Shown: positions 1 through 25,011 of the stretch, in pieces
Layout: every line of letters starts with the position of its first letter
Numbering within the stretch: the stretch's first letter is position 1
Assembly (NCBI GenBank): GCA_963844965.1
Contig: CAWJQC010000006.1
Location: 1 to 64,000, forward strand
Origin: an uncultured bacterium
Lineage (GTDB): Bacteria > Patescibacteriota > Minisyncoccia > UBA6257 > 2-01-FULL-56-20
DNA length: 64,000 nt
Direction of reading: 5' to 3'
Notes under the pieces: model-generated
The model's input: only the letters and a program-made list of their open reading frames with translations
Databases searched by the model: none
Told to the model about the DNA's origin: nothing
Made by a program: the position numbers and the translations under genes

Positions 1-172
1 CCAGTTTCTACCACATCAACCCGTTGCTGGCCTGACTCAATGTTTGAGATATGCGACTGAGGGCGGCCGATTTTTTTGGCCGCTTGCACTTGAGTGAGCC
101 CGGCTTCTACGGCGGGCCTTTCGGAGACGCTCCACCATATAGGCATATTCCCTCGTCTGGATCGATTTCATA
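1..172 (-). CDS. XRE-family HTH regulator, partial (runs off the window start); inverted copy of 3201-3419 with an indel
   Basis: Reverse complement of 1-230 matches 3190-3370. The mirrored start codon (cat) is at 170-172. Confidence 0.35.
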
Positions 173-372
173 CCTTTTCACGCTATATCCAAGAAAACTA
201 ATATCCAAATATTGGATATTGTGATATTTTTTGGAAGGGTTGGTCTGGCACAATTTGATGCTTCCCGTGGCGGTTTGTTTTTCTTGTCCTCTGGACTTCC
301 ACCACCGCTCAGTCATCAATACCGTCGGGTTATCCCGAAAGGTCGAAACAGAAGACAAATAAAAAAACATGA

Positions 373-1040
373 GTGCATTTTTTGTATTTTCTGTCATTTG
401 TAGCCCTAGGTGTTGAAATCCGCTGGACCGTGAAACCTGTTGATCCCTCAAGCAGCAGACCCGTGGGAAAGTGCTCCTTTGGTACGGTGGGGCATTCCTT
501 CTTCTCTGTTCTCATCGGCGTGTCTTATCTGTTGTCGCCTAGGGCACCCAGCGTCCGTGGCGAACACTACATCGAAGTTCTTGCTCGAAGAGGGAACAAG
601 CCCCGTCCTGCCGCAGCCGTCCCCAGTCGGAGCCCGGGGTCTCAAATTTTGCAGGTCTGACTGACTCCAGTTGAAGAGACCGAATCCAAAACCACAAGCC
701 CGCGTCTGCGCCGCAACGCAATGACTCACCCTGCTCCAGTCTTGAGGCTCCAACTCCAACTCCCGGCTCTTGTACCTACACCTGTGCAGCCGCAAACCGT
801 CTGATATCTGGGAGTACCCCAAACATAAATCCACGCAGACGTTTACCGTGGGGAGTAGCTGGCAGATGACCTGGAGCTATGACCGCTCGACCTTCGGTAT
901 TTTTCTCGGGGGAATTTCCAGGTGTACATTAACACCGCAAACATGTATTGCCCTCGTTCGACAATACCGGCGTGAACCAGCTCGGCGCGTCCTGGGATCG
1001 GAGACGGACTATTACCACACTGCTGGGAGCTATTATTGAG
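373..1040 (+). pseudogene. Degraded copy of a small secreted Pro-rich protein (mirror of 2322-3006)
   Basis: ORFs 373..660 and 770..1039 share the signal-peptide-like N-terminus (FLSFVALGV) and the C-terminal motifs QTFTVGSSWQMTWSYD / TDYYHT with the right-arm gene, but carry multiple indels. Confidence 0.35.
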
Positions 1041-1302
1041 CGGTGAAATTCAGAGGGGGAGCCTGGCACATTGCAAGGCTAAGGGTTAAGGGAGTCGCGG
1101 CACGATCCAATCCTCAATTGAACGGGATTTTATCTGTTTCTTGCTCCGACTAAAAGAGTTGTGCTTTTGCGGAATGCAATGTATTGGGCCTTACAATTTT
1201 GGTATGCTACCGTCTTAATCGCCGCGCATCTAATCTCTCTCTCTCTCGAACCGGCCGCGCCGGTTCGAGTCCCCTCGAATACCTACTAATCCTTAAGCCA
1301 GA

Positions 1303-1690
1303 AGGAAATTCGTCTTTCAGGTTTCTGAGCAAGCTCTCGTTGTATTACCGTGCGCTGAGCATTCCAGTGTACGAGGCGAATAGCTCTGTTCGGTTGGATT
1401 TGCGTCCAGGGCCCGATATTTCGCCTTGTGTTTGCGGTTCGCAAACAACGACCATGATCGGGAAAGTGAACCCATCCAAAGAAGTCGACGCCGGAAGCGA
1501 AGCTCTCAATAAAAATCTTGTCCGGATGAAGGAAAAGCTTGAGCCGTATATCGCCAAGAAATCCGTCAATGTGCGGCATCATGCTTTCCAGATAGTTTTT
1601 GTCACGGGAAAAGAATTGCAAAATCGTCGGCATATCGAAGATAGTATTGTACCTTCATCCCGCGTTTTATGAATTGGTCGAATTCATTCA
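1303..1690 (-). pseudogene. Reverse transcriptase, 3' portion only (motif C onward), left-arm copy
   Basis: YLRYADDF (YADD motif), LKLFLHPDKIFI, GVDFLGW thumb motifs; a frameshift sits ~1440. There are no RT domains 1-4 upstream; the gene is cut at the palindrome centre. Confidence 0.5.
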
Positions 1691-1695
1691 TATAA

Positions 1696-2122
1696 ATGTT
1701 CACTTCGCAACTTCTTGTGAACATTTATATGAATGAATTCGACCAATTCATAAAACGCGGGATGAAGGTACAATACTATCTTCGATATGCCGACGATTTT
1801 GCAATTCTTTCCCGTGACAAAAACTATCTGGAAAGCATGATGCCGCACATTGACGGATTTCTTGGCGACGGCTCAAGCTTGCCCTTCATCCGGACAAGGT
1901 TTTTATCAAGAGCTTCGCTTCCGGCGTCGACTTCCTTGGATGGGTTCACTTTCCCGATCATCGTGTTTTGCGAACCGCGAGCAAAAAGCGAATGTTTCGG
2001 GGCCTGGACGCAAATCCAACCGAACAGACTATTGCCTCGTACGCTGGAATGCTCACGCACGGTAATGCAACGCGACTTGCTCAGAACCTGAAAGACGAAT
2101 TTCCCTTCTGGTTTAAGGATTA
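1696..2122 (+). pseudogene. Reverse transcriptase, 3' portion only, right-arm copy (DGR-type C-terminal signature)
   Basis: QYYLRYADDFAIL ... (frameshift ~1870) ... LKLALHPDKVFIKSFASGVDFLGWVHFPDH ... IASYAGMLTHGNATRLAQNL, then a stop at 2120-2122. Confidence 0.5.
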
Positions 2123-2137
2123 GTAGGTATTCGAGGA

Positions 2138-2175
2138 CTCGAACCGGCGCGGCCGGTTCGAGAGAGAGAGAGAGT
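2138..2175. other. Perfect 11-bp GC hairpin (ctcgaaccggc/gccggttcgag) followed by (AG)7, immediately 3' of the RT stop; mirrored at ~1190-1272
   Basis: Seen directly in the sequence. Confidence 0.5.
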
Positions 2176-2321
2176 AGAATGCGCGGCGATTGAGAGACGG
2201 TAGCATACCAAAATTGTAAGGCCGATACATTGCATTCCGCAAACACAATACTTTTTGTCAAAGCAAGAACATGAGAAAATCCCCGTTCAATTGGGGATTT
2301 TATCGTGCCGCCGGAACTACA

Positions 2322-3006
2322 CTAACCCTTTACCGTAATGTGCCAGCTGCACTCTGAATTCACCTCGAGATAATAGCTGCCACCCGTGTGGTAATAGTCA
2401 GTATCCGATCCAGACGCGCCGAGCTGGTTCACGCCGGTATTGTCGAACGAGGGCGATCCGTTTGCGGTGTTAATGTACACCTGGAAATTCCCCCGATTCC
2501 CAAAGGTCGAGCAGTCATAGCTCCAGGTCATCTGCCAGCTATTCCCCACGGTAAACGTCTGCGTGGGTCTGCGTCCGCTACCAGAGATATCAAGAACGGT
2601 TTGCGGCTGCACAGGTGTAGGGGCGGGAGCGGGAGTTGGAGTTGGAGTGGACTGGAACAGGCTGCGGCGTTGGTTGCGGCGCAGGCGCGGGCTGTGGTTT
2701 CGGCATCGTCTTTACAACTGGAGTCAGAGAGTCCCGCGAAACCGGCTCAGGGCTCGGGGTTGAGGACGGCTGCGCGGCAGGGGCTTGTACTTCTTGCGCA
2801 GGAGCCGATGTCGTGTTCGCCACGGGCGCTGATGCCGTCGGCGACGACGGATCGACACGCCGATGATAAAGAGAAGAAGGAATGCCCCACCGTACCAAAG
2901 GAGCACTTTCCCACGGGTCTGCTGCTTGAAGGATCCACGGTTTCACGAGTCCCACGATTGCAACGCCTAGGGCTACAAATGACAGGAGTCCGAAAAATGC
3001 ACTCAT
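2322..3006 (-). CDS. Small secreted or anchored protein: signal/TM segment, Pro-rich linker (PKPQPAPAPQPTPQPVPV), ~95-aa C-terminal domain; candidate DGR target
   Basis: ORFs 2590..3120 (start at MSAFFGLLSFVALGV, 3006) and 2322..2612 are joined by a 1-nt frameshift. It lies convergent with the RT fragment. Confidence 0.45.
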
Positions 3007-3200
3007 GTTTTTTATTTGTCTTCTGTTTCGACCTTTCGGGATAGCTTTCTTTCCAACACCATTGATGACGCAGCGGTGGTGGAAGTCCAGAGGGCAAGAA
3101 ACCGCCACGGGAACCATCAAATTATGCCGGACCCACCCTTCCAGAATATCACAATATCCAATATTTGGATATTGGTTTCTTGGATATAGCGTGAAAAGGT

Positions 3201-3419
3201 ATGAAATCGATCCAGACGAGGGAATATGCCTATATGGTGGAGCGTCTCCGAAAGGCCCGCATAGAAGCCGGGCTCACTCAAGTGCAAGCGGCCAAAAAAA
3301 TCGGCCGCCCTCAGTCGCATATCTCAAACATTGAGTCAGGCCAGCAACGGGTTGATGTGGTAGAACTCAAGCGCTTCGCCGCATTGTACGGGAAGAGGCT
3401 GAACTATTTTATAAAGTAA
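3201..3419 (+). CDS. XRE-family HTH transcriptional regulator
   Basis: [25 protein letters not shown] is a classic Cro/C1-type HTH. Confidence 0.75.
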   Translation: MKSIQTREYAYMVERLRKARIEAGLTQVQAAKKIGRPQSHISNIESGQQRVDVVELKRFAALYGKRLNYFIK

Positions 3420-3971
3420 AGTTGTTCCAACCTACGACTCGCTGACGGCTTGGGCGAACATTCCCTTCACTTCTAGCGGTGCAGAATTTGGGCTTACTAA
3501 CCGATAGAGCGGGCGTATCTTATCGTGGAACAACCGCCAGAGCGTATTCGCGTACCATTTCGATCGCGCGTAGTAGTTATACCGTAACAGCGCTCAATGA
3601 TTGTAAGCACCGAGCCTGGGATCAATCTCTTTACCAGCTTCAATCTCATCCTCGAACCAGCTGAGCAGCAGGAAGGTCATGCCTTCGAGCAGATAAAATT
3701 GCTTGCACTGTTCATTAAAGCTAAGGCAAAACTCCGGACCAAAGGCAAAAGGGCACTTTTTGTAGAATTCTCTGTCTATCATTTTAGTGTCATTATTTTT
3801 TACAGGAAATCTCCGCGCGCGAATCGCTCGAAGAAATTTCCGCTTCCTGAGGAATCACCATCTGATGATCGACCGCCGCCATCGAACCCTCCTAGGCGCA
3901 ATCCGCCCCCTCCGGAAGAGTATCCACCGCCCGAACCAAACGATCCGCCGGAACTCTCCCTCCAAGACGGA

Positions 3972-5577
3972 TTACTTTCGTATAAACGCTCCGCCGCGTC
4001 TGAAAGCATGCCATGCAGCCGCTCGCTGTTCATCGGCCCGTCGTCGATGAGCGGCGTGAAGGACGGACGCGAGGAAGGGCCGAGGTCGATCCAGTGGCAT
4101 GACGGGCAGGGTGTCGTCGTCCACATAGCCCTCGATGATCTGCCGCACGGCCGTCGTAAAAGCGTCGACCAGATCGTCGAAGCGCTCCGTCCCGAAGCCC
4201 GTGAGCTGCCGGATGAGTTCTTCCGCCCCGTAGCGCGGGAAGAGGACCTTCCCCGCGTAGAGGAGGTCCGTGCACGACGCGAGGCGCGACCTTTTGTCCG
4301 TCGTCACGTGGATGCCCTTGACCTTGTCGTCGTGGATGCCGTCGCTTTTCAGCTGGTCTACCGCCGCCTGCTGGAACTGGTTGTTTCTATGTCGATCTCG
4401 GTATGGCCGCGCTCTGCGAGCGTGCGGTAGAGTTCCTTCATCCTTGCGATCGTGGCCGGAAAGTCCATCCGGTCGTTTACGATCTGCGGCAGGACGTAGG
4501 CCGTGAATTCTTTGCCGTAGCCGGACACCAGATCGGCACCATCGCCGTTTTGTCGGCGGTCTCTTTTTGCGAAATCGCCAAGTCCGTGCCGATGTGGGTC
4601 GCGCGATAGTGCTCGATCTCCGGCAGCTCGTCGTAGTAGTGAATCATTTCATTGCGCACCACTTAATCTTCGTCTGGCACGATATTAAGAAGGTACTCGC
4701 GCTGCCAGGCGATTTCATTGCCGACCCGCAAGCGTTCCTTGATAACGTCCTTGATGCCCGCGTATTTGCCGGGCCAGAGCACGGTGTCGTTCTCGGCGAT
4801 CAGCGGATACCTCTTGTAGGCACCGGAGCGCTTGCCTTCCTCGATCTCCCGGATGAGCCGCATAAGAAGCGAGTCGTCGTGAAGCAGATTCCAGATCACG
4901 ATGAACCGTGTCGTCTTGTCGCCCAAGGGGAAGATGTTACGCGTTACCCATTCGTAGGTGGCATTCCTTGCCTCCTGGGTACGGACGCTCGCAACATCCT
5001 CACAGTCGTCCAGAATGCAGAGGTCGGGTCGGAACGCGCCGTGTTTGATGCCGCGTACGCTCTGCTCGGCGCTCGCCGCCGTAATCCTCGCGTTGTAGTT
5101 CGGGATCACGAGCGAGAAGGAATTCCAATCGTCCTCCTCGCGGAAGGGGCCGAGGTCGTTCCGCAGGAGCGGGTTGCCGTCCAACTGGTCCTTGATGTTC
5201 CGTAAGTACTGCTTCGCCTGCGCGAGCGTCTTGCCGAAGATGACGACGTGTTTTTTCTTTTGCTTTCCCGTGACCGCCCATATCGGATAGAGCTCCGCGA
5301 AGAGGGTCGTCTTGCCGCTGCCCCTGAAGGCCATGACGATGGCGAGGTCCGACGAATCGCTCTCTATGATCTGGTGCATCTCGTAGTGCATGGGTGCGGG
5401 CGCGTACGACATCCTGTCGGGGAAGTAGCACGGCACGAACCAGCTGAAACTCCGGCCCGTGACGGCGACCCTAAAGTCGCGGTCCGTGAGCATCCGCTCC
5501 AGTATCTTCTTGATCTCATCCGCATTTCCGACTCCGTACGCCGGTACATTACTGTTATTGTTTTGATTTTGTTCCAT
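3972..5577 (-). CDS. Phage terminase large subunit (ATPase + nuclease), split by frameshifts into ORFs 4663..5577, 4477..4662, 3972..4307
   Basis: Walker A AFRGSGKTT, Walker B LCILDDCED, nuclease motifs HIGTDLA and DDLVDAF. Confidence 0.65.
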
Positions 5578-6021
5578 TTTGATTGTTGGTATCCGTTAAT
5601 TTATTTTGACCGTCTTTTTCCTCACCGGAACCGACCGCTTCCGGCGGGGATTTGCCCGCAAGGTAAGGAGCATTGATCAGCGCTCGCTCCACCGCCGCCT
5701 GGAATTCCGCGTTCTCCTCCGGCGTCATAATGTTACGCTTCACGTGGGCAGTAACCTCGACTTTCGTGGCGGTACAGTTCGGATGGTGCTGCCGCAACCA
5801 CAGTTGTACTGCTGGGAAATGTTTTTCCCGTAATTCATCGAGATGAGCTGCGACTTCGACATGTCGGTAAGAACTGCCTCACCTTCGGCGATGGCCTGGT
5901 CGGCCCGCTTCGCAAATTCTTTATCCTTTTCACGCCATTCGTAATAGGTGCTTGATCGGCTTTTGATTGCCGCACGTTCGAGCGCGATTTCGAGGATCGG
6001 CATTTTGCGAAACTCCTCCAA
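5555..6021 (-). CDS. Putative terminase small subunit / phage DNA-binding protein (two overlapping frames)
   Basis: Judged by its position immediately upstream of the terminase large subunit and by its size; no strong motif. Confidence 0.3.
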
Positions 6022-6031
6022 GAGCCGCGCC

Positions 6032-7417
6032 TTATTTTGCGTGATTTCGCCTTGATTGATTTATCCCATTTCCAGCTAGGCATGGATTTTCACGGCTTTT
6101 TGGCCGATCAGCTTTTCTATGCGCCGCTTCGCGACCTCGGCATATATCTCGCTCTTTTCCATCGCATAACACCGTCGACCCAACTTGTGCGCCGCAGCGA
6201 TCGGTGCCACCGCTTCCGCAGAAAGGTTCGACCACGTATCGTCCCTGCGCGTAAGTACCTTGAGGTACTAAATGAACACTTTCACAGGCTTCGTGCCGAA
6301 AATTATCCCTTGCCCGGAGTGCTCTGTCGTCCGCCTTGAATTCAATGAAGTCCGTAGGGCATATCTTCTTGCCCTTCTCATACGCCTCAAATTGGGGCTT
6401 TCCTGGAGGCGGCATAGAGAGCATTCAGATATTCCTGCTGAAATAGCTCCTCGGTTCACGGTGCTATTAAGCGCGACTTTGCCCTTCGTCCCAACGAGTG
6501 CGATGTCGTGTTTGTTAAAGAACTTGTATTTCGCGGAAAATCCCTGGGTACGATCTTGCCCTTCGGAACCTCCACACGATCGTGTCGCGATACCGCCAAT
6601 GTTTTTCCATCGCTGTCCAGATGGTTTGCAAATTCTTCGGGTTCTCAAAGATAATAATTGAGAAGTCCGGTTTCTGAACTTTTGCAATACTCGCCATCCA
6701 GCGGTCGCTCAGTGCTGAATGTTTGTGCCGAGATACCTGTGATTGTGCTTGAGGCCGAACCCTCCGGTCGACTTGCCGCTTTTCTTCTTGCCGCGCAAGT
6801 AATCCAAAATGTACGGCGGATCGGTCAGACACATGTCCGCCTTCTCGCCATCCATGATTAAGCATATCGTCTTCGTTCATGGAATTCCGCATCGGATCCG
6901 CGCGGTTGGATCTGCCAGACCGTTCCTTTCTTGGTTTCTATCTTATTAATTTGCAGCTTCTTTAGCTCTTTCTCGAGGATCGAACACCTCGGGTTGTTCA
7001 TCTACGCCGAAGATTTTGTCCATATCTTCTGATGCAAATCCAGCGTTCTTGAGGATGTCCTCGTTAAAATCCTCTAGCATATTCCAATTCCAATCGCCCT
7101 GATGGATGTTGTCCTTCAAGGCCCACTCTTTCTCCTTGGTCTCGGTGAGCTTTGTAATTATCGTGGGCACGGTCATCATGCCCATCGACTTCGCTGCGCG
7201 AGTACGCATACTGCCAGCGACGACTAGAGCAAGCTTCGCCTGTCCGATTAGAAGCGATTACCGGCGCGCCCGCAGGAATTCGGGGTCGTTCTTGATGCTT
7301 CCGCAAAGCGTTTCGAACCCCATAGATAATTTTGCGTGGATTCCATCGAGGCAAGGTGAGGTCTGCGATTTTTACGTCAGTTGTTATTAAGTTATTGAGT
7401 TTGTTAGATTTTTTCAT
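6032..7417 (-). CDS. DNA methyltransferase (N6/N4 MTase family), fragmented by frameshifts
   Basis: The EPFCGSGGT SAM-binding motif in ORF 6032..6424 and the RYRDTIVW motif in 6515..6892; four overlapping minus-strand ORFs cover the span. Confidence 0.4.
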
Positions 7418-7494
7418 ATTTTGTGAATTATTTTTTTATGTTTACCATCGACCGGGATGGTTTCTGTAAATCGAAAGGTGCCATCCCTGGCACC

Positions 7495-8298
7495 TTAGAT
7501 AACGACTCTTGATTTTGGCAGCGTACACTTTACTGCCCCACTTTGTAACGCGTCGATTCCGTACCCGAAAAGCTTGAGCGCTTCCGCTTTGAGGCGCTTT
7601 TTTATCTGCGCCGCACCGCTCCCCGCGATACCGTAGTCCTCAGCAATGGCTTCCATGGTCGGCCTCTCCGATGCAGATCCGGTAAAACCCTCGCTGATTT
7701 CAATGAGTTCGTTTACAAACGTCAGTTGGTTTCCAATATTTTTAGAAACAGGGGTCGCTTTCAAAACTTCAGCGGGGAAAATGTTCGATTGGACTCTGAG
7801 CAATTCCTCCCTTGCGAAAGCCGTCTCTGCTTCGTCAAGCGGTGCGTATGTGCGAATGCCAACCCACCGGGCCTTTTCTCCAGAATTGACTATTTCGTAT
7901 ATAAAATCCCAATTGGTATTCGGCACCATAAGGTAATCAACGAGAATAATCGCCGATATCCCCATCTGACCATGATAGTAAAGATTAAAGGGCAGCTTGA
8001 ATTTCTTACCGATAGCCATAACACGTTGGTAATACAAATCGGCTTCCGGCGGCGTGAACGGCGGATGATACGACATATTCGTAAACAACGGATGTCCGTT
8101 GGTTTTGAACCATTCGTGAATATTCATATGCCGCTCGAGCCACGTCGCGCCCGGATCTTTTACGGTGCCAAATTCCCTTCTCGCCGCTTCGAGAATCCTG
8201 CGGAATTCTCCGGCAAGACAAAGCAGGCCGAGACGCTTCGCGTTTTCAGCAGCCGTTTTTTTCATCGTTTTCTGCCGAAATGTTTCAATGGTATCCAT
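7495..8298 (-). CDS. Hypothetical protein (267 aa) in the phage-like operon
   Basis: Intact ORF with no recognisable motif. Confidence 0.5.
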   Translation of the reverse strand: MDTIETFRQKTMKKTAAENAKRLGLLCLAGEFRRILEAARREFGTVKDPGATWLERHMNIHEWFKTNGHPLFTNMSYHPPFTPPEADLYYQRVMAIGKKFKLPFNLYYHGQMGISAIILVDYLMVPNTNWDFIYEIVNSGEKARWVGIRTYAPLDEAETAFAREELLRVQSNIFPAEVLKATPVSKNIGNQLTFVNELIEISEGFTGSASERPTMEAIAEDYGIAGSGAAQIKKRLKAEALKLFGYGIDALQSGAVKCTLPKSRVVI

Positions 8299-8301
8299 AA
8301 T

Positions 8302-11300
8302 TTACAGTGCTCTTTCAAAAATCCAGCTTTGCGATCCACGTTTGCCTAATACGATGCGCCCGTCAATAGCACCATCTTTGATTGAATACAACAACCCTGC
8401 ATGGCGCGTCCGCAGACCAAACCAATCCTTGAATTCAAATACGACCGCTAAATGATTCCCGTCCGGCGAGAGTTCCGCGACCTCTACTTTGACCCTATTC
8501 CCAAGAACATCCGATGTCTTACTTTCTATGATATTCCAAGTATCGGACTGATCGGCCTTCCTCCGTACGCCGTTCAAAAGATTATTGAGCGACTCGAGGC
8601 GAACATGTCCGTTCGGTATCGTGTCGGTATATCTGAAATGGATTGGTACGCCCGTAATCTCGCACACTCGGAGATCGTCGGGGTGAGAAGGCGCGCCACT
8701 CCACAGACAAATCCTCGCTTCTTGCGCTGCACAATATTTTCCGTTCATTGACCGTACGGCTTCCTGCTCGAGAATCCGCGCGCCCGAAACGCTGCTCGAA
8801 ACGAAATACCGCTTGAGCGCCTTCGTACCGGACGCAGCCGAGCGCTCGAGTTCCGATGGCAACACTTTTTTCCCGCTTATCTCGCAGCGCTCAAGCAGCC
8901 CCGGCATGACGACCTTCCCCGTTATCTCGCATCGCTCGGCTTCCTCGGGCAGCATCGGCTGCTGCGTTTCGGCGCAGAATACGAATTCCCGTCCGTGGCC
9001 GGTTTTGCCCGAAACCGCCGATCGCAATCCCTGATCCAATCGGTATTTCTTCCCGGAAATTTGGCTGACGGCGAGTTCGGCTTCGAGAGCGTCGCTTCCC
9101 GTGATTTCGCAGACTCGAAGTATTGCGGTTCCGCCCGCTTGCCGCTCACCGCAGAGGTTTTTAAGAGATCCTTCGTCACCATCTTGCCGGTCACTGCCGA
9201 CGGTTCAGCTTCGTCCGAAAGAATATGTTTACCACTGACAGCACAGACGAGGACGTGCTCCGGCAAGGCCATCCGTCCACTCATATCGGATTTCTGAAGG
9301 AGATGACGCAAAGCCTCCGCTCCAGTGATGGCACACTGGCCCAAACAGTTACGTGGGATGACCTGCATCGTCAGAGAACAGCGGCTCATCTCGGGTACCA
9401 TAACGATTTTTTCTTCGGATGGAACGAGGGCAAGGAGGCTTGTATACCCGGCCCCGACTCAAACTGATATGCAACCTCAACGTTCAAGCGTCGGTGTATA
9501 GTTCCTTCCAAGCCGACGACGAGGATTTCGAGGCGCGGCGTGAAGTCATCCTCAATCTTCTTCCGTTTCCGCGGATCACTCCCGGCGGCTTCAAGCTCTT
9601 GCGTCAGTCGGGCGTTATAAAACCGGCAAAACTCCGAAATTCCTTCGTCGGATTTTGCTTTTTCCGAAACGTACGAGGCGTTAATGCCGATAGGTTCAAG
9701 ATTTTCAAGAATATCTGGCAAGCGATTTGTTCCGTTAGGATCAGCTTTGCTCCAGTGCTCGTCGAGTGAAAATGGAATCTCGATAAGACGCTCGTAACTG
9801 TCATGGGTTACCGTCGCGCGGACGCGCACCAATGCGGTGCCCGTAAATGAACGTTGGGCATCGCGAATACGTGAGCGTACGTAGTTTGCGTTGAAGCTTT
9901 TCACCCATTCTTTTGCGATCATCTCTGTTTGCGTGATCACATCAGCATCTCCGTCATCGACACGGTGAAGGCCGTTCCCGGTTATTCGACTGACCAACCG
10001 TCCGAACCGCGACGAGCCCGGCTGGTATGAATCCAAAGACCTTTCCTTCTCGCCCACTCCGACGGCATTGAGCGCGGCGGGAATGAATTGATGCGCTTCC
10101 ATCGAATGGATAACCTCCGGCAGGCGCGGAAATGGAATCTCTCCCGCCCCATCGTCCATTCCGCCAAGCATCGCATCAATATTCTTTTCTTCGCGCTCCA
10201 GTTCGACTTTCGCTTCCGCGATGCTTTTCTCCGCTTTCTTCGTGGCTGTTTCAACATCCTTACCCGCAAGGGAGGCAATCACGAGCTTGCGTATCATTTC
10301 TTCGAAGCCGTCGGCCCCATTCTCTTCTTGTTCACCCATGCCGGACGCTTCGAGCAATGCCTCGATATCACCGATCGCGTGCGAAGCCAATTGCAGCTTT
10401 TCCATGAGTCGCCCCACGATGTATTCTTCGAATGTGCCACGGAGGACGATATTGAAGATGCAGACGTTCGCGTGCTCCGACGCCAATCGCTGGATGCGGC
10501 CGATGCGCTGTTCCACAACCATCGGGTTCCACGGCAGGTCGAAATTCACAAGCACGTTTGCGGCTTGGAGATTGACACCCTCCGCACCAGCTTCAGTGGA
10601 CACGATCACGTGGATTCAGGCGGATTCCTCTTAAGATTGGTTATCGTTTCCTGATTGCGTACGCCCGAATCTCCATTGATGAGCCCGCAGGAGATTCCAC
10701 GCTCGCCGAGGAACGCTTCGATCGTCGTCTGCGTTTCGCGGCGAGTCGTAAACACGACTGCCCGCCAGTCGTCGGGATTCTCGGCTCTTAGTTTGTCAAT
10801 GAGCGTTCCTAGGCCGCGCAGCTTCGCCGTTAATATTATCCGACTCACCACCTCGTGAACATCCGCCGCGAGCGATTCTGGAATCGTTTTGTGCAGGGCC
10901 ATGCCTCTCAGCTGCGCATCAAGCGCATGCGGGCTACTGATGAGCGCTTGGAGGATAGATATCTGCGCGAGGCGATTCAATTTTTGAATGGGTTCGGCAA
11001 TGAGATTGATAAGCTCAAGTTCCTCCGGCGTTGGATCAACGTGGTGCATCTGCACGATGCGTTCCGGGAAGTGGAGGTTGGCATCGGCGCGGCGGATGCG
11101 CGACATATAACCGTACACGATGGAACGGAACTGATCCTGCATCGCAGGATTCAAGCGACGAGCTTCCGTCCGGTTGTCGGCGATGAACGTGCGGGCGAAC
11201 ATGCCCGGAACTCCCGAAAGGGTTCTGATGGCCGCGGGCGACCGTGAGGAGGTCAATGAGGGAATAGATGTCCCAAAGGCGGTTCTGAATCGGAGTCGCC

Positions 11301-11930
11301 GTGAGCATGAGGACGTACTTGAATGTCCGGTCTGCCAATGCTTTTTTGAATCGTTGTGCGACTTGCGGCGCTTGGTCGGTACCGTAGAGATTGCGGAGTT
11401 TATGGGCCTCGTCGAGAACTAGCATATCGAAACCCACGGGAACGAGCGCGTCGAGATATATCCGCGCGGAGTGATACGTCGTGATTACCACCCCACCTTC
11501 TTCCGGCGGCTCAACATCAGCAAGATCCTTACCTGTCGCGATAACCGAGGGAATGCCAAACTTGGTATCAAGTTCTTCTTGCCATTGCGGCATCAGAAGC
11601 TTCGGGCAGACGACGAGGATTTTCGCGATGCGGTGCCGCGCCATAAGCTCGCTCATAACCAGACCGGCACTTATGGTTTTCCCTAAGCCCACATCGTCAG
11701 CGAGGAGCGTGAACAGGGAGCCTGCGGCAGAACGCAATCAGATTTTTCACTTGGTGATGGTACGGCTCGAGCTTGTCCCTCCATTTCGCCTCTGACTTGA
11801 GATCGTCCCGATCCCTGATAAGGATCGGCTCGATAAGATCCCACTCAAGCGCCGCGCGGTACAGTTTGTACGCGTTTGGGTCAGACGTTTTTCGTAAGCT
11901 CTTGCTGTGAAGTTGGGGCTGATTGTCCAT
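8302..11930 (-). CDS. SNF2-family helicase with a long C-terminal repeat region, split into six ORFs by frameshifts
   Basis: Motif I DDVGLGKT, motif II DEAH (LVLDEAHKLRN), helicase C-domain QRIGRIQRLAS. The C-terminal part (8302-9401) carries ~22-aa repeats of the form C(E/A)I(T/S)GK...L. Confidence 0.6.
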
Positions 11931-11937
11931 GGGAAGG

Positions 11938-13419
11938 TTAGTCGGTTATTTGATGTAGCGCTTTCCAAATCGTGTACATCGCGTACGAATCCGTACCGCA
12001 ATATTTTTTCAGCGCTTCGCGCAGCCTTTCGGACTCGGCACCGTTGAGCTCGCCCGAAGCGATTTTCAACCACGTGATCGCCGCCGTCCCGCCCTCACGA
12101 ATATCGAGTTCCTTGTAGCTCAGCTCCGGCGCGAGGACGGGGAGGACATTTTTAATGGAAACCTTACCCCACAAATCTTTATGGACGTAATACTGCTTCG
12201 AAAAAATATCCATGAGATCGTAGATGCGGCTGTTAAAGTCGGTCATGAATCCTTGGAGGTCGGGAATCCTCGCAGCGATGGCTTGATTGATGCTCGACTC
12301 GAATCTTTTATTCCAAACGATGATGGTTCCCTTTGGTCCGATGTACTCTTGGAGCGACGCCGCAAGTGGGCGGCTCGGATCCTCCATGGTGGTACTCAAA
12401 AATTCTTTGTGAATCGGCTCTTCGCCGGGAGCGTTCACGATATGCAGGGAATATTGAAACGGAACGTGGTGATACGGCGAATAGCCGTCGAAGAGCGGTA
12501 TCGCGGACGGATAGGTCTCGTAGTCAATGAAATAAAGTGGGAAGGCCAGTGTTCCCAGCTCTGTCGCGATTTCCGCCTTGCGTGCCGTAGTTCCGGAATT
12601 GAACGCGCGGATCTGCTCCTGCTGGATCTCGCTCAGTCCGATGTGCGTCGGTATCTTGTCCAGCCCGAAAATTCCGGCGTCCACCATCTCTTTCAGCTTT
12701 TTGGGACTATTTCCGATGCGGGCAATGTCATGGACGCCATATTCCGGCACCTGCGGATTCGAATATTTGAAGGTGCTACAGTGCCGCGAGCGACCGCGAT
12801 AAATGCAAATGCAGAAGCCGGGCGGCTCCTTGTCGCTCGACAAATATGCCTTCGCCTCCTCCATCTCTTTTGCCACTACCGACGCGACCTCCTCCACCTT
12901 TACCGTCATGTCGGCGTTGATGAAAAGTTTTTCGAGATCCAACGGCCCAGATCGCACGTATTCGGGATTGAGATGGGTAATGAACGCCTGGTCGATTTTC
13001 AAGCCGCAGCGACGGAGCAATAATACCTGAAACGCGAGGTCGTACAAATGCTCATCCTTCGGCTTCGTTGAAGACTTTATTTCATAGATGATATAGCCGC
13101 CAGTAGCGTTGTTATATTTGAGGACGTCTATCGCAGCCAAGAAGCCATCTTTCTCAAGGACTGGTTGAAAGAGAATGGGCGTCTTCGCGGCGAGAAGTTG
13201 CGCCGTTTTTGCTTGCGCGGCAGCATCCCGGCCCTCGATCAAAATGCCGTCTGGGAAAAGCCCATGGGCGATATCCTCGACTTCGTTGCCGCTTTCCATC
13301 ACGGCTCTATCGAATTCACTCAGCTCGAGGGTGCTATATATGTCCGGCTTGTGAATCCTAATCCACGCGTTCTTCGGACATTCACGCCAGATGATGTAAT
13401 CGGTTTTCGATAGGGCCAT
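11938..13419 (-). CDS. Cas4/RecB-family PD-(D/E)xK nuclease with Fe-S cysteines and a DUF2779-like C-terminal half
   Basis: An N-terminal Cys (WRECPKN) plus the CICIYRGRSRHC cluster, IYEIKSS (the catalytic K region), and a C-terminal FIDYETYPSAIP motif. Confidence 0.55.
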   Translation of the reverse strand: MALSKTDYIIWRECPKNAWIRIHKPDIYSTLELSEFDRAVMESGNEVEDIAHGLFPDGILIEGRDAAAQAKTAQLLAAKTPILFQPVLEKDGFLAAIDVLKYNNATGGYIIYEIKSSTKPKDEHLYDLAFQVLLLRRCGLKIDQAFITHLNPEYVRSGPLDLEKLFINADMTVKVEEVASVVAKEMEEAKAYLSSDKEPPGFCICIYRGRSRHCSTFKYSNPQVPEYGVHDIARIGNSPKKLKEMVDAGIFGLDKIPTHIGLSEIQQEQIRAFNSGTTARKAEIATELGTLAFPLYFIDYETYPSAIPLFDGYSPYHHVPFQYSLHIVNAPGEEPIHKEFLSTTMEDPSRPLAASLQEYIGPKGTIIVWNKRFESSINQAIAARIPDLQGFMTDFNSRIYDLMDIFSKQYYVHKDLWGKVSIKNVLPVLAPELSYKELDIREGGTAAITWLKIASGELNGAESERLREALKKYCGTDSYAMYTIWKALHQITD

Positions 13420-13420
13420 C

Positions 13421-13756
13421 TTATTTTTCGATTTCCCTTACGGCCTTTTCCACCCCTTGCACGTCGAGCATGATGTAATAGGCCCGCTTGCCGCCACGCG
13501 AGATTTCCGTCCGCTTCAAAATACCCGCACTCACCAGCGGCCGTAGGTTGGGAAGCCACTTGATGCTGCTCGTTTCTTGGACTTCCTGCAGCACCCATGC
13601 ACCGGCGAAACCGTGCTCCTTGGTCCGCTTTGCTTCCTTAATGGCTGCCGCCAAAATCGGGAGCCATGTGGGATGATCGCGAAGGAATCGCTGTGTAGCG
13701 ATGTATCCGTTCAGGGGACCAACTTGTTTAGACATGCCGCCATCATATGTCATCAT
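13421..13756 (-). CDS. Small putative winged-helix/DNA-binding protein, first gene of the operon
   Basis: 111-aa ORF whose stop overlaps the nuclease start; an operator-like palindrome lies just upstream. Confidence 0.4.
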   Translation of the reverse strand: MMTYDGGMSKQVGPLNGYIATQRFLRDHPTWLPILAAAIKEAKRTKEHGFAGAWVLQEVQETSSIKWLPNLRPLVSAGILKRTEISRGGKRAYYIMLDVQGVEKAVREIEK

Positions 13757-13788
13757 TCGTCATCATGTCAAATCTCGCAAAAGCATAG

Positions 13789-13833
13789 AAAAAATCCCAT
13801 ATCGGACATGTCCGATATGCCTTGGATTGTCCG
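13789..13833. promoter_or_regulatory. Operator-like site: perfect 20-bp palindrome ATATCGGACATGTCCGATAT plus two extra TGTCCGA half-sites
   Basis: Seen directly; located in the promoter region upstream of 13756. Confidence 0.45.
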
Positions 13834-14154
13834 ATTTGTCCGAAATGGATCTCCGCCTTAAAATTCAAGAGCGACCTCCCGGCTTCGAAAACCGCTTTTC
13901 CAAGAAAGCCCTGAAAGGCTCATCAAAAAGAGGTTCCCGACCGAGGATCACCGCAAATGATTTTGCGTGCTCTTCTGAGCTACGCAAAACCATCTTGTTT
14001 GAGTGGGAGGATTCGAACAGTGGAGGGGGTCGGGGAACTGCTTAGTTCCCCGCGTAGGAGATTATTCAGAACCGAGGGTTCTGAAAAGCGAGCGGAGCGA
14101 GCGCGTTCGAATAGCGAAACGCCTCTCGCCTCCGCAGGAACATACACCCCATTT

Positions 14155-18483: not shown

Positions 18484-18568
18484 TAAATATAAAATAGCCG
18501 CACCTCACGGCATCTTAATTTTAGCACAAAACAGAGCGGTTTACCAGTGGAATTTTTGACAAAAAATG

Positions 18569-18603
18569 CCCAAAAACCGCTATTTCGTACAGCGGTTTTT
18601 GGG
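18569..18603. other. Perfect 13-bp stem hairpin (cccaaaaaccgct / agcggtttttggg) in the gyrB upstream region
   Basis: Seen directly. Confidence 0.5.
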
Positions 18604-18755
18604 CGTTGCGGGCAGGATAGGACGATATCCGAACGATTTTGATTCAAGGATCAGGCTGGTAAACCACAAAGTGGGGCCGAATTTTGGCACCCCTTGCTTA
18701 AATTTTTAATCCGATATTTAATTAACTTAGCGGTTTAAATTTTACAGAAACTGAG

Positions 18756-19028
18756 GTGATTATGCCCCACATAGAAATCAAACCCAGGTTAGACGATTTG
18801 GATGATTTAGACCTTGATGAGAATAGCAAAGAACAGATAAAAGCAGCTCGTTTGGAGGCCGCCGATTGCGCTCAAAAGTTGGCTTTACTGTCCGATCATG
18901 CTCTTAACCTTTCTGAAGTCGAGGCTTGTTTAGAAGGATGCCTAACTTCAATCAGGAAGGAAATGAATATTCAGATAATGATCAGAAAAAGCAAAGAAGA
19001 GGAAGGTCGGCTCCCTGCGTCTCCGTAA
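18756..19028 (+). CDS. Hypothetical acidic small protein
   Basis: ORF only. Confidence 0.35.
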   Translation: MIMPHIEIKPRLDDLDDLDLDENSKEQIKAARLEAADCAQKLALLSDHALNLSEVEACLEGCLTSIRKEMNIQIMIRKSKEEEGRLPASP

Positions 19029-19102
19029 CCCGAGCACGAGAAAGGAAATTTGGCTTAAGTCCATAGCTTAAGCCATTTTTTATATAAATTAGATTATTTA
19101 TG

Positions 19103-19120
19103 GTCCTCGGGTAGCGGAGG
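19103..19120. repeat. attL-like direct repeat of the tRNA-Ser 3' end (gcggagggggagggaatc)
   Basis: 17 of 18 nt match 26533-26550. Confidence 0.55.
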
Positions 19121-19277
19121 GGGAGGGAATCTCACACGAACACATGTTTTGCCCCGACCCCCTGACTTTTAAAACCCACGGTTTTTAATATTTTCCTACA
19201 CGGGGCAAAACGGTTCGAATCCCTCGGCTCATAGTTGCAAAAAGAAAACACCTCTTCGGGTGTTCCTTTTTGCAATT

Positions 19278-19365
19278 GCGGTGTCTGCTTGAAAATATCC
19301 GAACCGAACTGAATGGGCTTTTTAACGATAACGGACATAAATAGTTTTTAATCGGAACGGAAAGG
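19278..19365. repeat. IR arm T' (88 bp), perfect inverted copy of 20715-20802
   Basis: Direct comparison. Confidence 0.8.
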
Positions 19366-19397
19366 ACGATTTCAAGTTTTTCTTTGACGGCTTCATT

Positions 19398-20336
19398 TTA
19401 AATTTTTCTATTTTCCGTGTTAGAGCCTGTCGTCAGAAGGTCAGATTCCTTTTCAAATTCTTGCTGATTAATTAAACGCAATAAAAGATGGCGCACTGTG
19501 TAGTTCTTTATTTTGGCTGGATTATTTCCATCCTCAGTTTCAGTTACTACAAATTCATCAAGAGTTATTTTTCTTACCCAACCAGTTTCTAAGTCCATAT
19601 AAATATCTCCTTTGTATTCAGAACCACCCTCTGTTTTAATATATTTATCTTCAGAAGATTTGACAGCCATTTTCAGAGTGCTTTCGCCAGAATCATATCC
19701 AATTATCGCGCAGACAGCTCTATCAACTATGCTTGCTCCCTTAAATTCAAGCGTGACTTCCCCATTGCGAAAAACCGATCCTGGCTTAATAGTTGTGCCA
19801 AGATTAACAGGTGCCTCGCTAAAAGCCGCCGGATGCACAATCTTATCACCTATTAATTTCAATGCATCTATTCCTTTTCCAAAAAGCGGTCTTGAAAAGA
19901 TATCATTCAGAGCGTGAAAATCAATGAAATTATTGTATATTGCATAACAAAATTCAGGAGAAATTTTATTCCCCTTGCTGTCACTTATACCTTCAAATTT
20001 ATCATGCGGAATTCCGAATACAGGGCCTTTATCAAGTACGCCTGACATCCTATTAAATTCATAGTTCCATGATTTGAGTGCAGGAATAGTAACAATATTT
20101 TCAGAATTTAATTGTAAACAAAATTCTTTAATAGTACATTGATCTAATTTTTTCTCTGACAATGTTGCGGGAATGTAGCGGAGTTTTAATGAATATGTTT
20201 CGGTGCCTGTGCGTTTTCCGTCAAACCCCATGTGAATAAACTGGGTTCGCATATGATAATACTGGGTTTCCAGTTTTCGATTAATTGAAAAATCAAATTG
20301 GCATGCGAGATTTTGTAAAAGAGTTTTATTCCCCAT
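19398..20336 (-). CDS. Hypothetical protein (312 aa), the AT-rich cargo of unit A
   Basis: Intact ORF, no motif recognised. Confidence 0.6.
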   Translation of the reverse strand: MGNKTLLQNLACQFDFSINRKLETQYYHMRTQFIHMGFDGKRTGTETYSLKLRYIPATLSEKKLDQCTIKEFCLQLNSENIVTIPALKSWNYEFNRMSGVLDKGPVFGIPHDKFEGISDSKGNKISPEFCYAIYNNFIDFHALNDIFSRPLFGKGIDALKLIGDKIVHPAAFSEAPVNLGTTIKPGSVFRNGEVTLEFKGASIVDRAVCAIIGYDSGESTLKMAVKSSEDKYIKTEGGSEYKGDIYMDLETGWVRKITLDEFVVTETEDGNNPAKIKNYTVRHLLLRLINQQEFEKESDLLTTGSNTENRKI

Positions 20337-20340
20337 ATCT

Positions 20341-20556
20341 TTATTTCATTAAATTATCAATCGTAATGCCAAGTCCGTTGGCAATTTTTACGACAGTCTG
20401 AATAGACGGCTTAGTAATAACATTACTTTCGATTTTAGTAAGCGTTGTGTAGGGAAGGTTGGATTTTCTTGCCAGTTCGTCTTGCGTTAGTTCTTGCTTA
20501 TTCCTAAGCTGTTTTATTTTATCTCCAATCGTTTCCTTGTTGTTTTGACTTTTCAT
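20341..20556 (-). CDS. XRE-family HTH regulator
   Basis: LTQDELARKSNLPYTTLTKIE. Confidence 0.75.
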   Translation of the reverse strand: MKSQNNKETIGDKIKQLRNKQELTQDELARKSNLPYTTLTKIESNVITKPSIQTVVKIANGLGITIDNLMK

Positions 20557-20714
20557 AGTTTCCTAAGTATGATAGTATTAGTATGGGTGCTTATTTGACC
20601 CTTCATAATTATACTAACAAATTTTATGAGATTAGTCCACTCAAAAAATAAAAATCCGCTTTTAGCCTGTATAAAGTACGAGCCGACATTTTTGACGGGT
20701 TCTTTGGCAGTTTG

Positions 20715-20802
20715 CCTTTCCGTTCCGATTAAAAACTATTTATGTCCGTTATCGTTAAAAAGCCCATTCAGTTCGGTTCGGATATTTTCAAGCAGACACC
20801 GC
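20715..20802. repeat. IR arm T
   Basis: Inverted copy of 19278-19365; ends with the core caccgc. Confidence 0.8.
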
Positions 20803-20880
20803 CAGTTAAGAAATGGCTCGCCTTGCAGTCGGGCTCGCCAGCCGTTTTGTGGGGAAATTTCAAGCCGTTTCGCATTAAGA
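20797..20880. repeat. IR arm P (84 bp), perfect inverted copy of 22265-22348 (the 3' end of recombinase 1)
   Basis: Direct comparison. It lies 26 bp upstream of the recombinase 1 start codon. Confidence 0.85.
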
Positions 20881-20906
20881 AAGGCTAAAAGCAGATTTTC
20901 TAAAAT

Positions 20907-22349: not shown

Positions 22350-22572
22350 GATATTAGACTTTGCTCGAACCCACTTCGCACGCGCGGAGCGCGTGGTGGC
22401 TTGAACCGGAAGCGTACGCCCCGATTCCGCTGACAGCGCCTCGACCGCGCTCGCGGACTCGCGCGGGCAAACCCAAAAATTTCCTTGCATTTTCTTTGCG
22501 CGGCTCCTCCCCCCACCCCTCCGCCGCAAGGCGGGAAATGAAGGAAAGGAAATTTTTGGTTTGCGTCGCCAC
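22349..22572. repeat. IR arm Q' (~224 bp), inverted copy of 24631-24860; contains a ~96-nt hairpin with a G-rich loop
   Basis: Direct comparison. The table ORFs inside it (22354..22707, 24595..24849) mirror each other and are probably non-coding. Confidence 0.8.
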
Positions 22573-22781
22573 AAGGAAACTCCACAAAGAGTAACAAAAG
22601 ATTTCATCAAATGAAACCCTTTGCTCCGTATCCTTGTGGCGACCCGAGGCGCAATACAATGCGGTTTGCGCTAGGGCACAATCATATTTGATATGTGCTT
22701 GCCCCACCCGCCCAGTGCGCGCACAACCAGCCCGGCCGTTTTTAGGAGAAATTATAAAACGGCGGGGCTGGCTCCCTTGAA

Positions 22782-23387: not shown

Positions 23388-23389
23388 TT

Positions 23390-24367: not shown

Positions 24368-24371
24368 AAAT

Positions 24372-24986: not shown

Positions 24987-25011
24987 CTCTTGTTTCAAAT
25001 CCAAGAACTAT

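Follow-up and report, generated by a model that had tools for sequence, protein, structure and literature searches.

A terminase-containing operon of a Patescibacteria contig as a candidate satellite-like mobile element with defence-type cargo

Introduction

Described phage satellites that have no capsid genes depend on the large terminase (TerL) of their helper (PMC9618062; PMC10085698). The cfPICI are satellites that encode both a small terminase (TerS) and TerL; in addition, they encode capsid, portal and head-tail adaptor/connector proteins, and 11 core components are recognised (PMC10085698). The PLE of Vibrio cholerae can use a large serine recombinase, and marine VEIMEs carry TerS, restriction-modification and Abi-like genes (PMC9618062); both have replication modules and rely on the large terminase of the helper.

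The elements described here resemble PICI and SaPI in being compact islands of ~8-15 kb with a recombinase at one end and a putatively repressor-controlled operon, and in having their own small terminase and accessory or defence cargo without virion or lysis genes (for the core features of PICI see PMC10085698). They differ in the use of a large serine recombinase instead of a tyrosine integrase, in the lack of a primase-replicase module and of a capsid-size-redirecting gene, in the possession of their own large terminase and a ParB-methyltransferase, and in their Patescibacteria hosts. They share the TerS-TerL pair with cfPICI but are set apart from them by the absence of capsid, portal and head-tail adaptor/connector genes, and they have no sequence relationship to PLE or VEIMEs. 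The closest phage TerL proteins are those of Mu-like (transposable) phages (PHROG 38), in which portal, Mu-F, protease, capsid and tail genes come after TerL; this arrangement never occurs in the element family. Variable anti-phage cargo at fixed positions beside conserved core genes is likewise known from the P2/P4 defence hotspots, whose core genes, recombinase type and host phylum are different.

Little is known of the phages and mobile elements of CPR bacteria (Patescibacteria), in which CRISPR is rare. Here we analyse a block of genes near the start of a 64-kb stretch of DNA, referred to as the window. The original prediction weighed an integrated or decaying phage against a defence island. 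Our results suggest that this was a false choice, and on balance we consider it probable that the block belongs to a satellite-like integrative mobile element, in which a phage packaging core is combined with defence-type cargo, and comprises its regulator, cargo and packaging genes. No description of this element family was found in the literature searched.

Results

A conserved core with variable cargo

The element family is widespread in Patescibacteria (CPR). Its core, which hardly varies, lies on one strand and comprises, in this order, a ParB-N6/N4 methyltransferase, TerS, TerL, 0-7 cargo genes and, usually, a large serine recombinase. Clustering of the region ±10 kb around TerL in 43 loci, 39 IMG/VR loci among them, found the methyltransferase and TerS in 43/43 each, TerL in 42/43 and the recombinase in 32/43, many contigs ending before it would be reached. 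The same core is present in L035, the closest relative of the window copy, in L038 (Ca. Microsyncoccus archaeolyticus), in L040 and in L036, where a complete element of ~7.7 kb is bounded by host pilus genes and the recombinase. Many of these islands are listed in IMG/VR as viral contigs.

The cargo varies on both sides of the core. It is dominated by restriction-modification systems, helicases (SNF2 and others), reverse transcriptases (RTs) and LexA/S24-type repressors, the latter divergent from the operon in 7 loci, and it also includes nucleases. Among 72 downstream and 92 upstream cargo ORFs, the 25 commonest Pfam families include type I, IIG and ISP restriction-modification, SNF2, PIF1, RVT_1, ThsB-TIR, OLD/AAA_15, RmuC and S24/LexA, in agreement with PADLOC. 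Neither the conserved clusters nor the commonest families of cargo include a replication family, and circular or terminally repeated contigs of the family were not seen.

Virion genes are equally absent. The 64-kb window contains no portal, capsid or tail genes, its remainder being host genes, and no portal, capsid, tail or lysis genes were found within ±10 kb around TerL in the 43 loci; the latter survey covers the 25 commonest Pfam families, and rarer structural genes may have escaped it. In addition, 96 structural-region ORFs from 10 true phages with distant TerL relatives had 0 matches in the 43 loci and the window; as a positive control, the same ORFs had conserved counterparts in 21-25 phage loci. 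In the same ±10 kb region, virion genes able to supply capsids were not seen next to any family member.

The packaging core of the window copy

In the window, the regulator, cargo and packaging core form a tightly packed minus-strand operon that reads from 13756 to 3800. The limit of the block given earlier, 3597, comes from a spurious ORF on the plus strand that overlaps the TerL end; TerL itself stops at 3800. The domains listed in the original prediction were recovered, whereas the absence of open frames as assembled for 4/8 block genes (SNF2, ParB-methyltransferase, small and large terminase) had been left out of it; the DUF2779, 267-aa and 111-aa ORFs are uninterrupted frames.

The first core gene (about 6076..7417, minus strand) encodes a ParB_N domain (9e-4 on one fragment) and an N6/N4 DNA methyltransferase, which after repair matches type II MTase models at 1e-25. 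Alignment to the intact homologs of L004 and L122 reveals ~14 frameshifts of mixed indel size (1, 2, 4 and 7 nt) and an in-frame TAG at 6268; compared with L122, amino-acid identity is 85% and dN/dS is 0.055. The second core gene, an HTH-type small terminase (about 5555..6060, minus strand), was located by alignments to the 148-aa and 162-aa homologs of L004 and L035 and has one frameshift near 5834; phrog_4044 TerS is matched by 40/40 scanned family members and phrog_309 TerS by 36. The third, the large terminase (3800..5577, minus strand), matches phrog_38 in its N-terminal (6e-47) and C-terminal (6e-9) parts and Terminase_6N (2e-5). The gene is broken by a CAA->TAA stop codon at 4663-4665 and by one-base indels close to 4531, 4385 and 4098. 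Its amino-acid identity to the L035 TerL is 93%, and dN/dS is 0.026, the same before and after the stop, indicating strong purifying selection. Across the 19 family members compared, the Walker A and Walker B motifs and the nuclease aspartates show no variation. TerL homologs number more than 1000; the best phage relatives are the Mu-like terminases of BalMu-1, SuMu and 3927AP2 (25-32% identity). The predicted identities of the methyltransferase and both terminases are thus borne out.

Cargo genes

The SNF2-family helicase (8302..11930, minus strand; SNF2-rel_dom 3.7e-25, Helicase_C 2.8e-12) would have ~1205 aa if repaired. Its domains agree with those expected, but the gene is not a single open frame: it is split over 6 frames by 5 one-base indels near 11713, 11215, 10616, 9452 and 9113. 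The homolog in L123, a sister long-read assembly, has 10 frameshifts. The C-terminal repeats noticed earlier are real: the region ~9330-8305 contains ~13 tandem 15-residue repeats of the pattern [C/S]x[I/V][S/T]GK..., with a small alpha+beta domain after them, and no solved fold matching the repeats was found. DrmD models give the helicase core its best scores, and, as in DISARM, a methyltransferase is located nearby. However, DrmA, DrmB, DrmC and DrmE are absent from the window, the match is of a generic SNF2 core only, the methyltransferase belongs to the terminase core and not to the helicase, and the helicase neighbours are DUF2779 and the 267-aa ORF rather than DISARM genes.

The intact 493-aa protein encoded at 11938..13419 (minus strand) belongs to DUF2779 (PF11074, E=1.3e-38) and has a putative Cas4-like PD-(D/E)xK region at its N-terminus. 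Of its earlier description as a Cas4/RecB-like Fe-S nuclease, the DUF2779 assignment stands, while the similarity to Cas4 is weak (Pfam 0.0019, 18.8 bits versus a cut-off of 22.7; PADLOC 2e-7); a cysteine pattern C14 ... CxCx8C was read by eye. The gene has no indels, its product is 94% identical to the L121 protein (dN/dS 0.12), and homologs come mainly from Patescibacteria MAGs. The intact 267-aa ORF (7495..8298, minus strand), directly upstream of the methyltransferase, has no match to any family in profile searches; only 2 homologs exist in 5.8e9 protein clusters, both directly upstream of a ParB-methyltransferase, and dN/dS against the 250-aa homolog in L122 is 0.115. Structure prediction, suggested earlier for this ORF, yielded an unusable AF2 model (pLDDT 38).

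Presumed regulator, operator-like site and possible right boundary

The presumed regulator is an intact 111-aa ORF (13421..13756, minus strand), 80% identical to a 109-aa ORF upstream of DUF2779 in L121, with dN/dS of 0.11. It had been called a winged-helix protein; searches of Pfam, PHROGs, PADLOC and PDB sequences gave zero matches and lend this no support. The operator proposed near it has a counterpart at 13798..13850, upstream of the ORF, where direct reading of the sequence and a self-match showed a perfect 22-bp palindrome (CATATCGGACATGTCCGATATG, 13798-13819) and two further GTCCGA(T/A) half-sites. This operator-like site is placed just upstream of a minus-strand promoter-like site at 13771-13742 (TTGACA, 18 nt, TATGAT; score 11/12), and the stretch 13790-13849 is conserved at 92% in L121 versus 78% for the adjoining gene. 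The palindrome also scores as a hairpin with a T-run and may alternatively be a terminator.

A 99-bp segment at 13860..13958 marks the right limit of similarity to L035 (blastn, 94% identity to L035 2209-2307), where it matches the last 36 nt and the terminator-like hairpin of the serine-recombinase gene; the minus strand has a hairpin with a T-run at 13896-13870. The segment is possibly the element boundary or a leftover of a lost recombinase gene. No further copy of it was found in 123 fetched loci or IMG/VR, nor were direct repeats or a tRNA found at the right end of the block. Intact host genes (PAP2, NusG, GyrB) follow from 14155 onward.

Left end of the window

Positions 1..1710 form a garbled mirror image of 1711-3370, with inverted repeats across the whole stretch; the palindrome arms (1-3370) show 1459 matches, 183 mismatches and 42 indel events. 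Positions 1..1710 are best explained as an artefact of assembly, a foldback chimera, rather than as biological sequence. The "RT locus" assigned earlier to 1-3420 is an imperfect palindrome with two mirrored copies of the C-terminal half of an RT only. Probable cargo downstream of TerL occupies 1711..3420 and includes an HTH_3 gene (3201-3419, plus strand; HTH_3 8e-13), a 227-aa ORF (2590-3273, minus strand) and the RT C-terminal half (1699-2120, plus strand; RVT_1 1e-5). The 227-aa ORF is open in the right palindrome arm only, and its homologs directly adjoin TerL in L035, L036, L045 and L052. The RT fragment aligns to residues ~200-377 of RTs carried as cargo by 6 related elements. In 6 related loci the RT cargo is accompanied by an Avd-like gene, and the RT of L040 adjoins bAvd; of the features of a diversity-generating retroelement, the window has neither an Avd match nor a repeat pair, and its RT is half-length and mirrored. 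In relatives the serine recombinase comes after TerL. In the window the palindrome replaces that side, and the recombinase end expected in this copy is lost in the palindromic left end.

Frame disruptions

The ~23 frameshifts and 2 in-frame stops of the window copy all fall within four genes. Most of them are likely long-read assembly errors that cluster near the foldback-chimeric end and not biological decay, because the copies in L035, L121 and L122 lack them and because positions 1-3370 are a garbled palindrome. These three copies, from other assemblies with ~85% nucleotide identity, carry the genes without the window disruptions; in the L035 TerL itself, one homopolymer frameshift may be present close to the 5' end. 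The density of disruptions drops away from the window start, from 15 per 3.6 kb to 5 per 4.4 kb to 0, a trend that does not hold in strict order: the methyltransferase is hit harder than TerL, though TerL is nearer to the window start, and DUF2779 and the 267-aa ORF are clean.

Discussion

Judged by genes alone and at the level of the family, the PICI combination of integrase, regulator and TerS without structural or lysis genes is present (recombinase in 32/43 loci, TerS in 43/43, S24/LexA in 7, with the regulator and operator-like site in the window), and the primase-replicase module of PICI is absent. In such an element, the recombinase would carry out integration and excision and the repressor would hold the operon silent. 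Upon induction, the methylase would mark the element DNA, and TerS and TerL would cut it and pump it into helper-phage procapsids, as phage satellites do; in the integrated state, the cargo would protect the cell. Several observations count against the satellite reading. The att sites to which the original prediction had pointed were searched for, and neither they nor an excised or circular form or a terminal repeat were found; the core has no replication module of the kind present in PICI and P4; and we know of no helper phage for the family. In addition, the element's own TerL is unexplained, because known capsid-less satellites use that of the helper. We put forward only tentatively the wider proposal that the elements with ParB-methyltransferase, TerS, TerL and serine recombinase are a new Patescibacteria-specific class of phage satellites, with a complete terminase and no capsid genes, which may load themselves and their defence cargo into CPR phage procapsids and may be a main vehicle of defence-gene exchange in these reduced genomes.

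That the block is the leftover of a complete tailed prophage minus its structural genes, as originally thought, is very improbable. TerS, TerL and the ParB-methyltransferase stand in typical phage order, TerL is distantly akin (about 25-32%) to Mu-like phage terminases, and the window does not show the element's left end. Of the features of a tailed prophage (Caudoviricetes), the block has a large terminase, but portal, major capsid and tail genes are absent beside it. The 43 loci share this structural-gene-free layout, with the recombinase after TerL directly or past defence cargo; L036 is host-bounded at ~7.7 kb; the search with phage structural proteins gave 0 matches; and identical independent decay across dozens of lineages is implausible. 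Taken together, the 43 structural-gene-free loci and the TerL dN/dS of 0.026 favour a distinct, maintained element over a decaying prophage. Since the window and the 43 loci lack virion genes and share the core and defence cargo, and since terminase homologs reside in compact defence-flanked islands and not in phage genomes, we take the block to be neither a prophage nor its remnant; what survives of the proposed phage-derived module is the two terminases following the ParB-methyltransferase. The lack of virion genes and the defence-gene setting of the homologs had both been named in the original prediction as grounds for refuting it. It is also unlikely, if less so, that the trio is a cellular anti-phage device, cutting or mis-packaging phage concatemers or acting as a decoy, with the recombinase only moving a defence island and no encapsidation. 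The trio is always found among defence genes, replication genes, virion genes and free forms were not found for the 43 loci, and terminases are known as targets and sensors in phage defence. However, TerS and TerL retain all packaging-motor motifs and the canonical phage gene order, the divergent S24/LexA-type repressors of 7 loci resemble induction switches of mobile elements, and PADLOC offers no precedent, the core yielding generic methyltransferase matches only.

A less remote alternative, though we still regard it as doubtful, accepts the same element family and holds that this copy is truly decaying: the methyltransferase, TerS, TerL and helicase would be pseudogenes, and the nuclease, 267-aa gene and regulator would be kept in an immobilised, partly domesticated island. 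Islands often lose mobility genes and retain cargo; here the 23 frameshifts and 2 stops are confined to four genes with three interleaved genes intact, one disruption is a substitution (the CAA->TAA of TerL), the methyltransferase indels are mixed in size, and a second recombinase, distant from the window end, is likewise frameshifted. Yet the broken SNF2 is cargo and no mobility gene, every frameshift in SNF2 and TerL is single-base, the adjoining garbled palindrome has the same indel spectrum, and the sister assembly L123 is similarly fragmented. Moreover, dN/dS of the broken genes (0.026-0.16) is not above that of intact neighbours and, in TerL, is equal on both sides of the stop. On dN/dS, however, random sequencing errors have the same effect as neutral mutations.

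The apparent pseudogenes and the "RT locus" are probably artefacts of long-read assembly, and such artefacts can mislead both sequence-only readers and automated virus callers. A large terminase of its own in the absence of capsid genes gives the candidate satellite-like element an unusual design. Being compact and easily recognised, the element family would offer a concrete way to study the acquisition and exchange of immunity among CPR bacteria and to learn which phages infect them.

Gene Content of the Block

The genes of the block form a tightly packed string on the minus strand from 13756 to 3800, with gaps of 0-77 nt, and six of the eight proposed genes are backed by family searches. All on this strand, these include a DUF2779 protein with a weakly Cas4-like N-terminus (11938-13419; PF11074, 1.3e-38; Cas4, 0.0019; PADLOC Cas4, 2e-7), a SNF2 helicase (8302-11930; SNF2-rel_dom, 3.7e-25; Helicase_C, 2.8e-12), a ParB_N/N6-N4 methyltransferase (about 6076-7417), identified by family searches and by alignment to intact homologs, the small terminase TerS (about 5555-6060), weak on its own but with 40 of 40 family homologs matching PHROG TerS models, and the large terminase TerL (3800-5577; phrog_38, 6e-47). 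Two ORFs, of 111 aa (13421-13756) and 267 aa (7495-8298), had no matches in family searches, and a PDB sequence search returned nothing significant for either of them or for the DUF2779 protein. The winged-helix label originally attached to the 111-aa ORF is thus unsupported by family or PDB sequence searches. Structure prediction for the 267-aa ORF, from an alignment of three sequences, gave an unusable model (pLDDT 38). This ORF extends 17 codons (7495-7548) beyond the stop of both homologs (...GYGIDA), and by this comparison its stop codon appears to have been lost or misread in the window.

The region 5' of the 111-aa ORF contains a perfect 22-bp palindrome (13798-13819), two further GTCCGA(T/A) half-sites, and a promoter-like site (11/12). 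This operator-like stretch is 92% conserved in one relative, versus 78% identity of the adjacent gene, which fits a putative regulatory site. The palindrome scores as a hairpin with a T-run too, and may alternatively act as a terminator.

The original prediction of C-terminal repeats in the SNF2 helicase was borne out: a 15-residue unit, [C/S]x[I/V][S/T]GK..., is repeated in tandem about 13 times. Seemingly stand-alone homologs of 200-430 aa are mostly gene fragments. The DUF2779 and SNF2 genes are also adjacent, in either order, in two further loci (L007 and L121), which suggests that they may constitute a two-gene helicase-nuclease module. Beyond the helicase core, no PADLOC system was matched by this pair; membership of the helicase in DISARM, BREX, or Zorya is ruled out, the match being confined to the core. 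At position 10170, inside the SNF2 gene, identity to L121 falls sharply from 92-99% (13.2-10.2 kb) to 63-78% (10.2-8.3 kb), as would be produced either by a recombination breakpoint within the helicase gene or by a chimeric consensus.

Assembly Error versus Decay

Frameshift-tolerant alignment of the region to intact homologs revealed five frameshifts in the SNF2 gene, about 14 frameshifts and one in-frame stop (TAG) in the methyltransferase gene, one frameshift in TerS, and three one-base indels and one in-frame stop (CAA to TAA at 4663) in TerL; SNF2 and TerS have no in-frame stops, and the DUF2779 gene and the 267-aa and 111-aa ORFs are intact. An alternative genetic code is ruled out, because the in-frame stops are of all three types (TAA, TGA, and TAG) and the reading frame itself shifts at the breaks. 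Cluster look-ups yielded relatives from other assemblies that are about 85% identical at the nucleotide level: L035 has TerS and TerL without the disruptions of the window, L121 has an intact SNF2 (1208 aa) together with DUF2779 and a 109-aa ORF, and L122, a k141 short-read contig, has the end of SNF2, an ORF of 250 aa, and a methyltransferase truncated by the contig end.

The left flank of the block carries an HTH gene, a 227-aa ORF, and a reverse transcriptase (RT) fragment. Here positions 1-3370 form an imperfect palindrome centered near 1710; when its arms are compared, 1459 positions match, 183 are mismatched, and indel events number 42 (about 86% identity). RT homologs match with their C-terminal halves only, once in each arm; the RT locus originally placed at 1-3420 thus holds two mirrored copies of this C-terminal half alone, and the 227-aa ORF is open in the right arm only. 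A foldback-chimeric long read at the end of a contig would look like this, and, judged from its sequence, the palindrome is most likely such an artefact; therefore any finding that rests on 1-3420 calls for caution. Template or variable repeats of a diversity-generating retroelement were found neither in the window arm nor in a related locus, L045.

We consider assembly error the probable source of the disruptions, and genuine recent decay of this copy a distinctly weaker candidate. The density of disruptions decreases away from the palindromic end, from about 15 per 3.6 kb (3.8-7.4 kb) to 5 per 4.4 kb (7.5-12 kb) and 0 at 12-14 kb, beyond which there are open ORFs of 2-4.9 kb. Other assemblies in the ERZ250395xx series ("contig_N") contain frameshifts as well, namely 10 in the SNF2 homolog of L123 (1652-5332) and a G5-versus-G4 frameshift near the TerL 5' end of L035 (about 10022), which points to this series as a probably indel-prone data source. 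On the other hand, the methyltransferase gene is more damaged than TerL, though TerL is nearer the palindromic end, two interleaved genes are clean, and a recombinase gene at 25-26 kb is frameshifted as well (two frameshifts, 24850-26538), all of which would fit decay. The dN/dS values of the broken genes (TerL, 0.026, equal before and after the stop; methyltransferase, 0.055; SNF2, 0.16), set beside 0.11-0.12 for the intact DUF2779 gene and 267-aa and 111-aa ORFs, give no evidence of relaxed selection; yet dN/dS does not discriminate between error and decay, as random errors would affect this statistic in the same way as neutral mutations. Single-base indels were dropped as a discriminator too, since indels of 1-7 nt occur in both the methyltransferase gene and the palindrome arms.

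The Element Family

Homologs of the TerL N-terminus number more than 1100 at E<=1e-10. Identity is about 50% for the best 120 listed, and the few of these with a source name are almost all labelled Patescibacteria. The family architecture was derived from four genome contexts (L035, L036, L038 from Ca. Microsyncoccus archaeolyticus, and L040) and 39 IMG/VR loci. Their common order is ParB-methyltransferase (at times with a second methyltransferase), TerS, TerL, 0-7 other genes, and a large serine recombinase. Clustering recovered only these four families as conserved: methyltransferase in 43/43 loci, TerS in 43/43, TerL in 42/43, and recombinase in 32/43, the last count being held down by contig ends. 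In L036 the entire element spans about 7.7 kb, with host pilus genes on one side and the recombinase on the other. The Walker A and Walker B motifs and the nuclease aspartates of TerL are invariant and the gene is under strong selection; the terminase is maintained in the family.

The cargo, located between TerL and the recombinase and upstream of the methyltransferase, consists mostly of defence-type genes: type I, IIG, and ISP restriction-modification systems; SNF2, PIF1, and other helicases; RVT_1 reverse transcriptases, with Avd-like partners in six loci; ThsB-TIR, OLD/AAA_15, and RmuC; DUF2779; and S24/LexA repressors. Between the window and L035, TerS/TerL are 86.5% identical at the nucleotide level, and the cargo between shared ends differs. 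At the end opposite TerS/TerL, a 99-bp segment (window 13860-13958; L035 2209-2307) is 94% identical next to unrelated cargo. It corresponds to the final 36 nt of the L035 recombinase gene together with its terminator hairpin. In the window there is no recombinase at this position, and a search for further copies of the segment found none.

Some relatives carry extra TerL or core copies (L047, L053, L061, L062, L077; L078; L054/L067), with two tandem TerL paralogs of about 520 aa each in some elements, two complete methyltransferase-TerS-TerL cores 9 kb apart in one contig, and two cores within a 55-kb contig in another. In addition, members of a protein family that lacks annotation (about 230-320 aa) are encoded directly beside the terminase in five elements (window 2590-3273, minus strand; L035 11700-12668; L036 11542-12375; L045 5485-6234; L052 5931-6677). 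The gene lies tail-to-tail with an RT in the window and L045, and the PADLOC match of the family is weak (PD-T4-6, 1.5e-4).

To the right, the block is flanked by PAP2, NusG, and GyrB genes, and further right by two serine recombinases, surface proteins, phosphoglucomutase, FtsK, RecA, and PNPase. Three large serine-recombinase genes (window 20797-22348 and 24857-26537; L035 550-2219) are each flanked by inverted repeats, which measure 84, 131, and 126 nt and are perfect (100%). The right arm is each time the 3' end of the gene itself, a Hin-like layout that places the recombinase inside an invertible segment of its own. For the 131-nt repeat, the right arm ends flush with the 3' end of tRNA-Ser(gga) (26534-26619). 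A second mobile region probably lies at 18500-24500, a low-GC stretch (38-46% versus about 50%) in which the intact recombinase cassette is accompanied by a 312-aa unknown ORF and by genes for DUF2207-like and trypsin-like proteins.

Comparison with Phage Satellites

The original prediction of an integrated or decaying phage anticipated virion genes elsewhere on the contig and att sites; the 64-kb window contains no virion genes, and neither att sites nor a tRNA were found at the right end of the block. As a positive control we used IMG/VR loci with a distant TerL (only about 26% identity), which proved to be Mu-like phages with the canonical order of TerL, an ORF of about 540 aa at the portal position, one of about 433 aa, and further conserved ORFs of capsid/tail size; 96 structural-region ORFs from ten of these phages had no match in the 43 loci or the window. 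A prophage remnant is unlikely. The gene order of the family is fixed; a recombinase is associated with it, its regulators are of repressor type, its defence cargo is swappable, and it has zero virion genes.

The element resembles PICI-type satellites (PMC10085698, PMC9618062). Four features set it apart from these: its recombinase is of the serine type, where they have a tyrosine integrase; it lacks a primase-replicase module; it carries a ParB-methyltransferase; and it has a TerL of its own but no capsid genes, so that it is not a cfPICI either (PMC10085698, PMC9618062). In the proposed cycle, the serine recombinase would insert the element into the host chromosome, and a repressor would silence it, possibly the 111-aa protein acting on GTCCGA sites in the window and an S24/LexA-type protein in other copies. 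Upon induction the element DNA would be methylated, and its own TerS and TerL would load it into helper-phage capsids. No helper phage was found, and no circular or terminally repeated contigs, or other free form, were seen for the family. Alternatively, the trio of methyltransferase, TerS, and TerL could by itself serve as a defence device. No description of the family was found in the literature searched; coverage was incomplete, which makes this no more than absence of evidence. Overall, we rate the family as satellite-like integrative elements with defence hotspots; the window copy is a poor specimen, and the interest lies at the level of the family.
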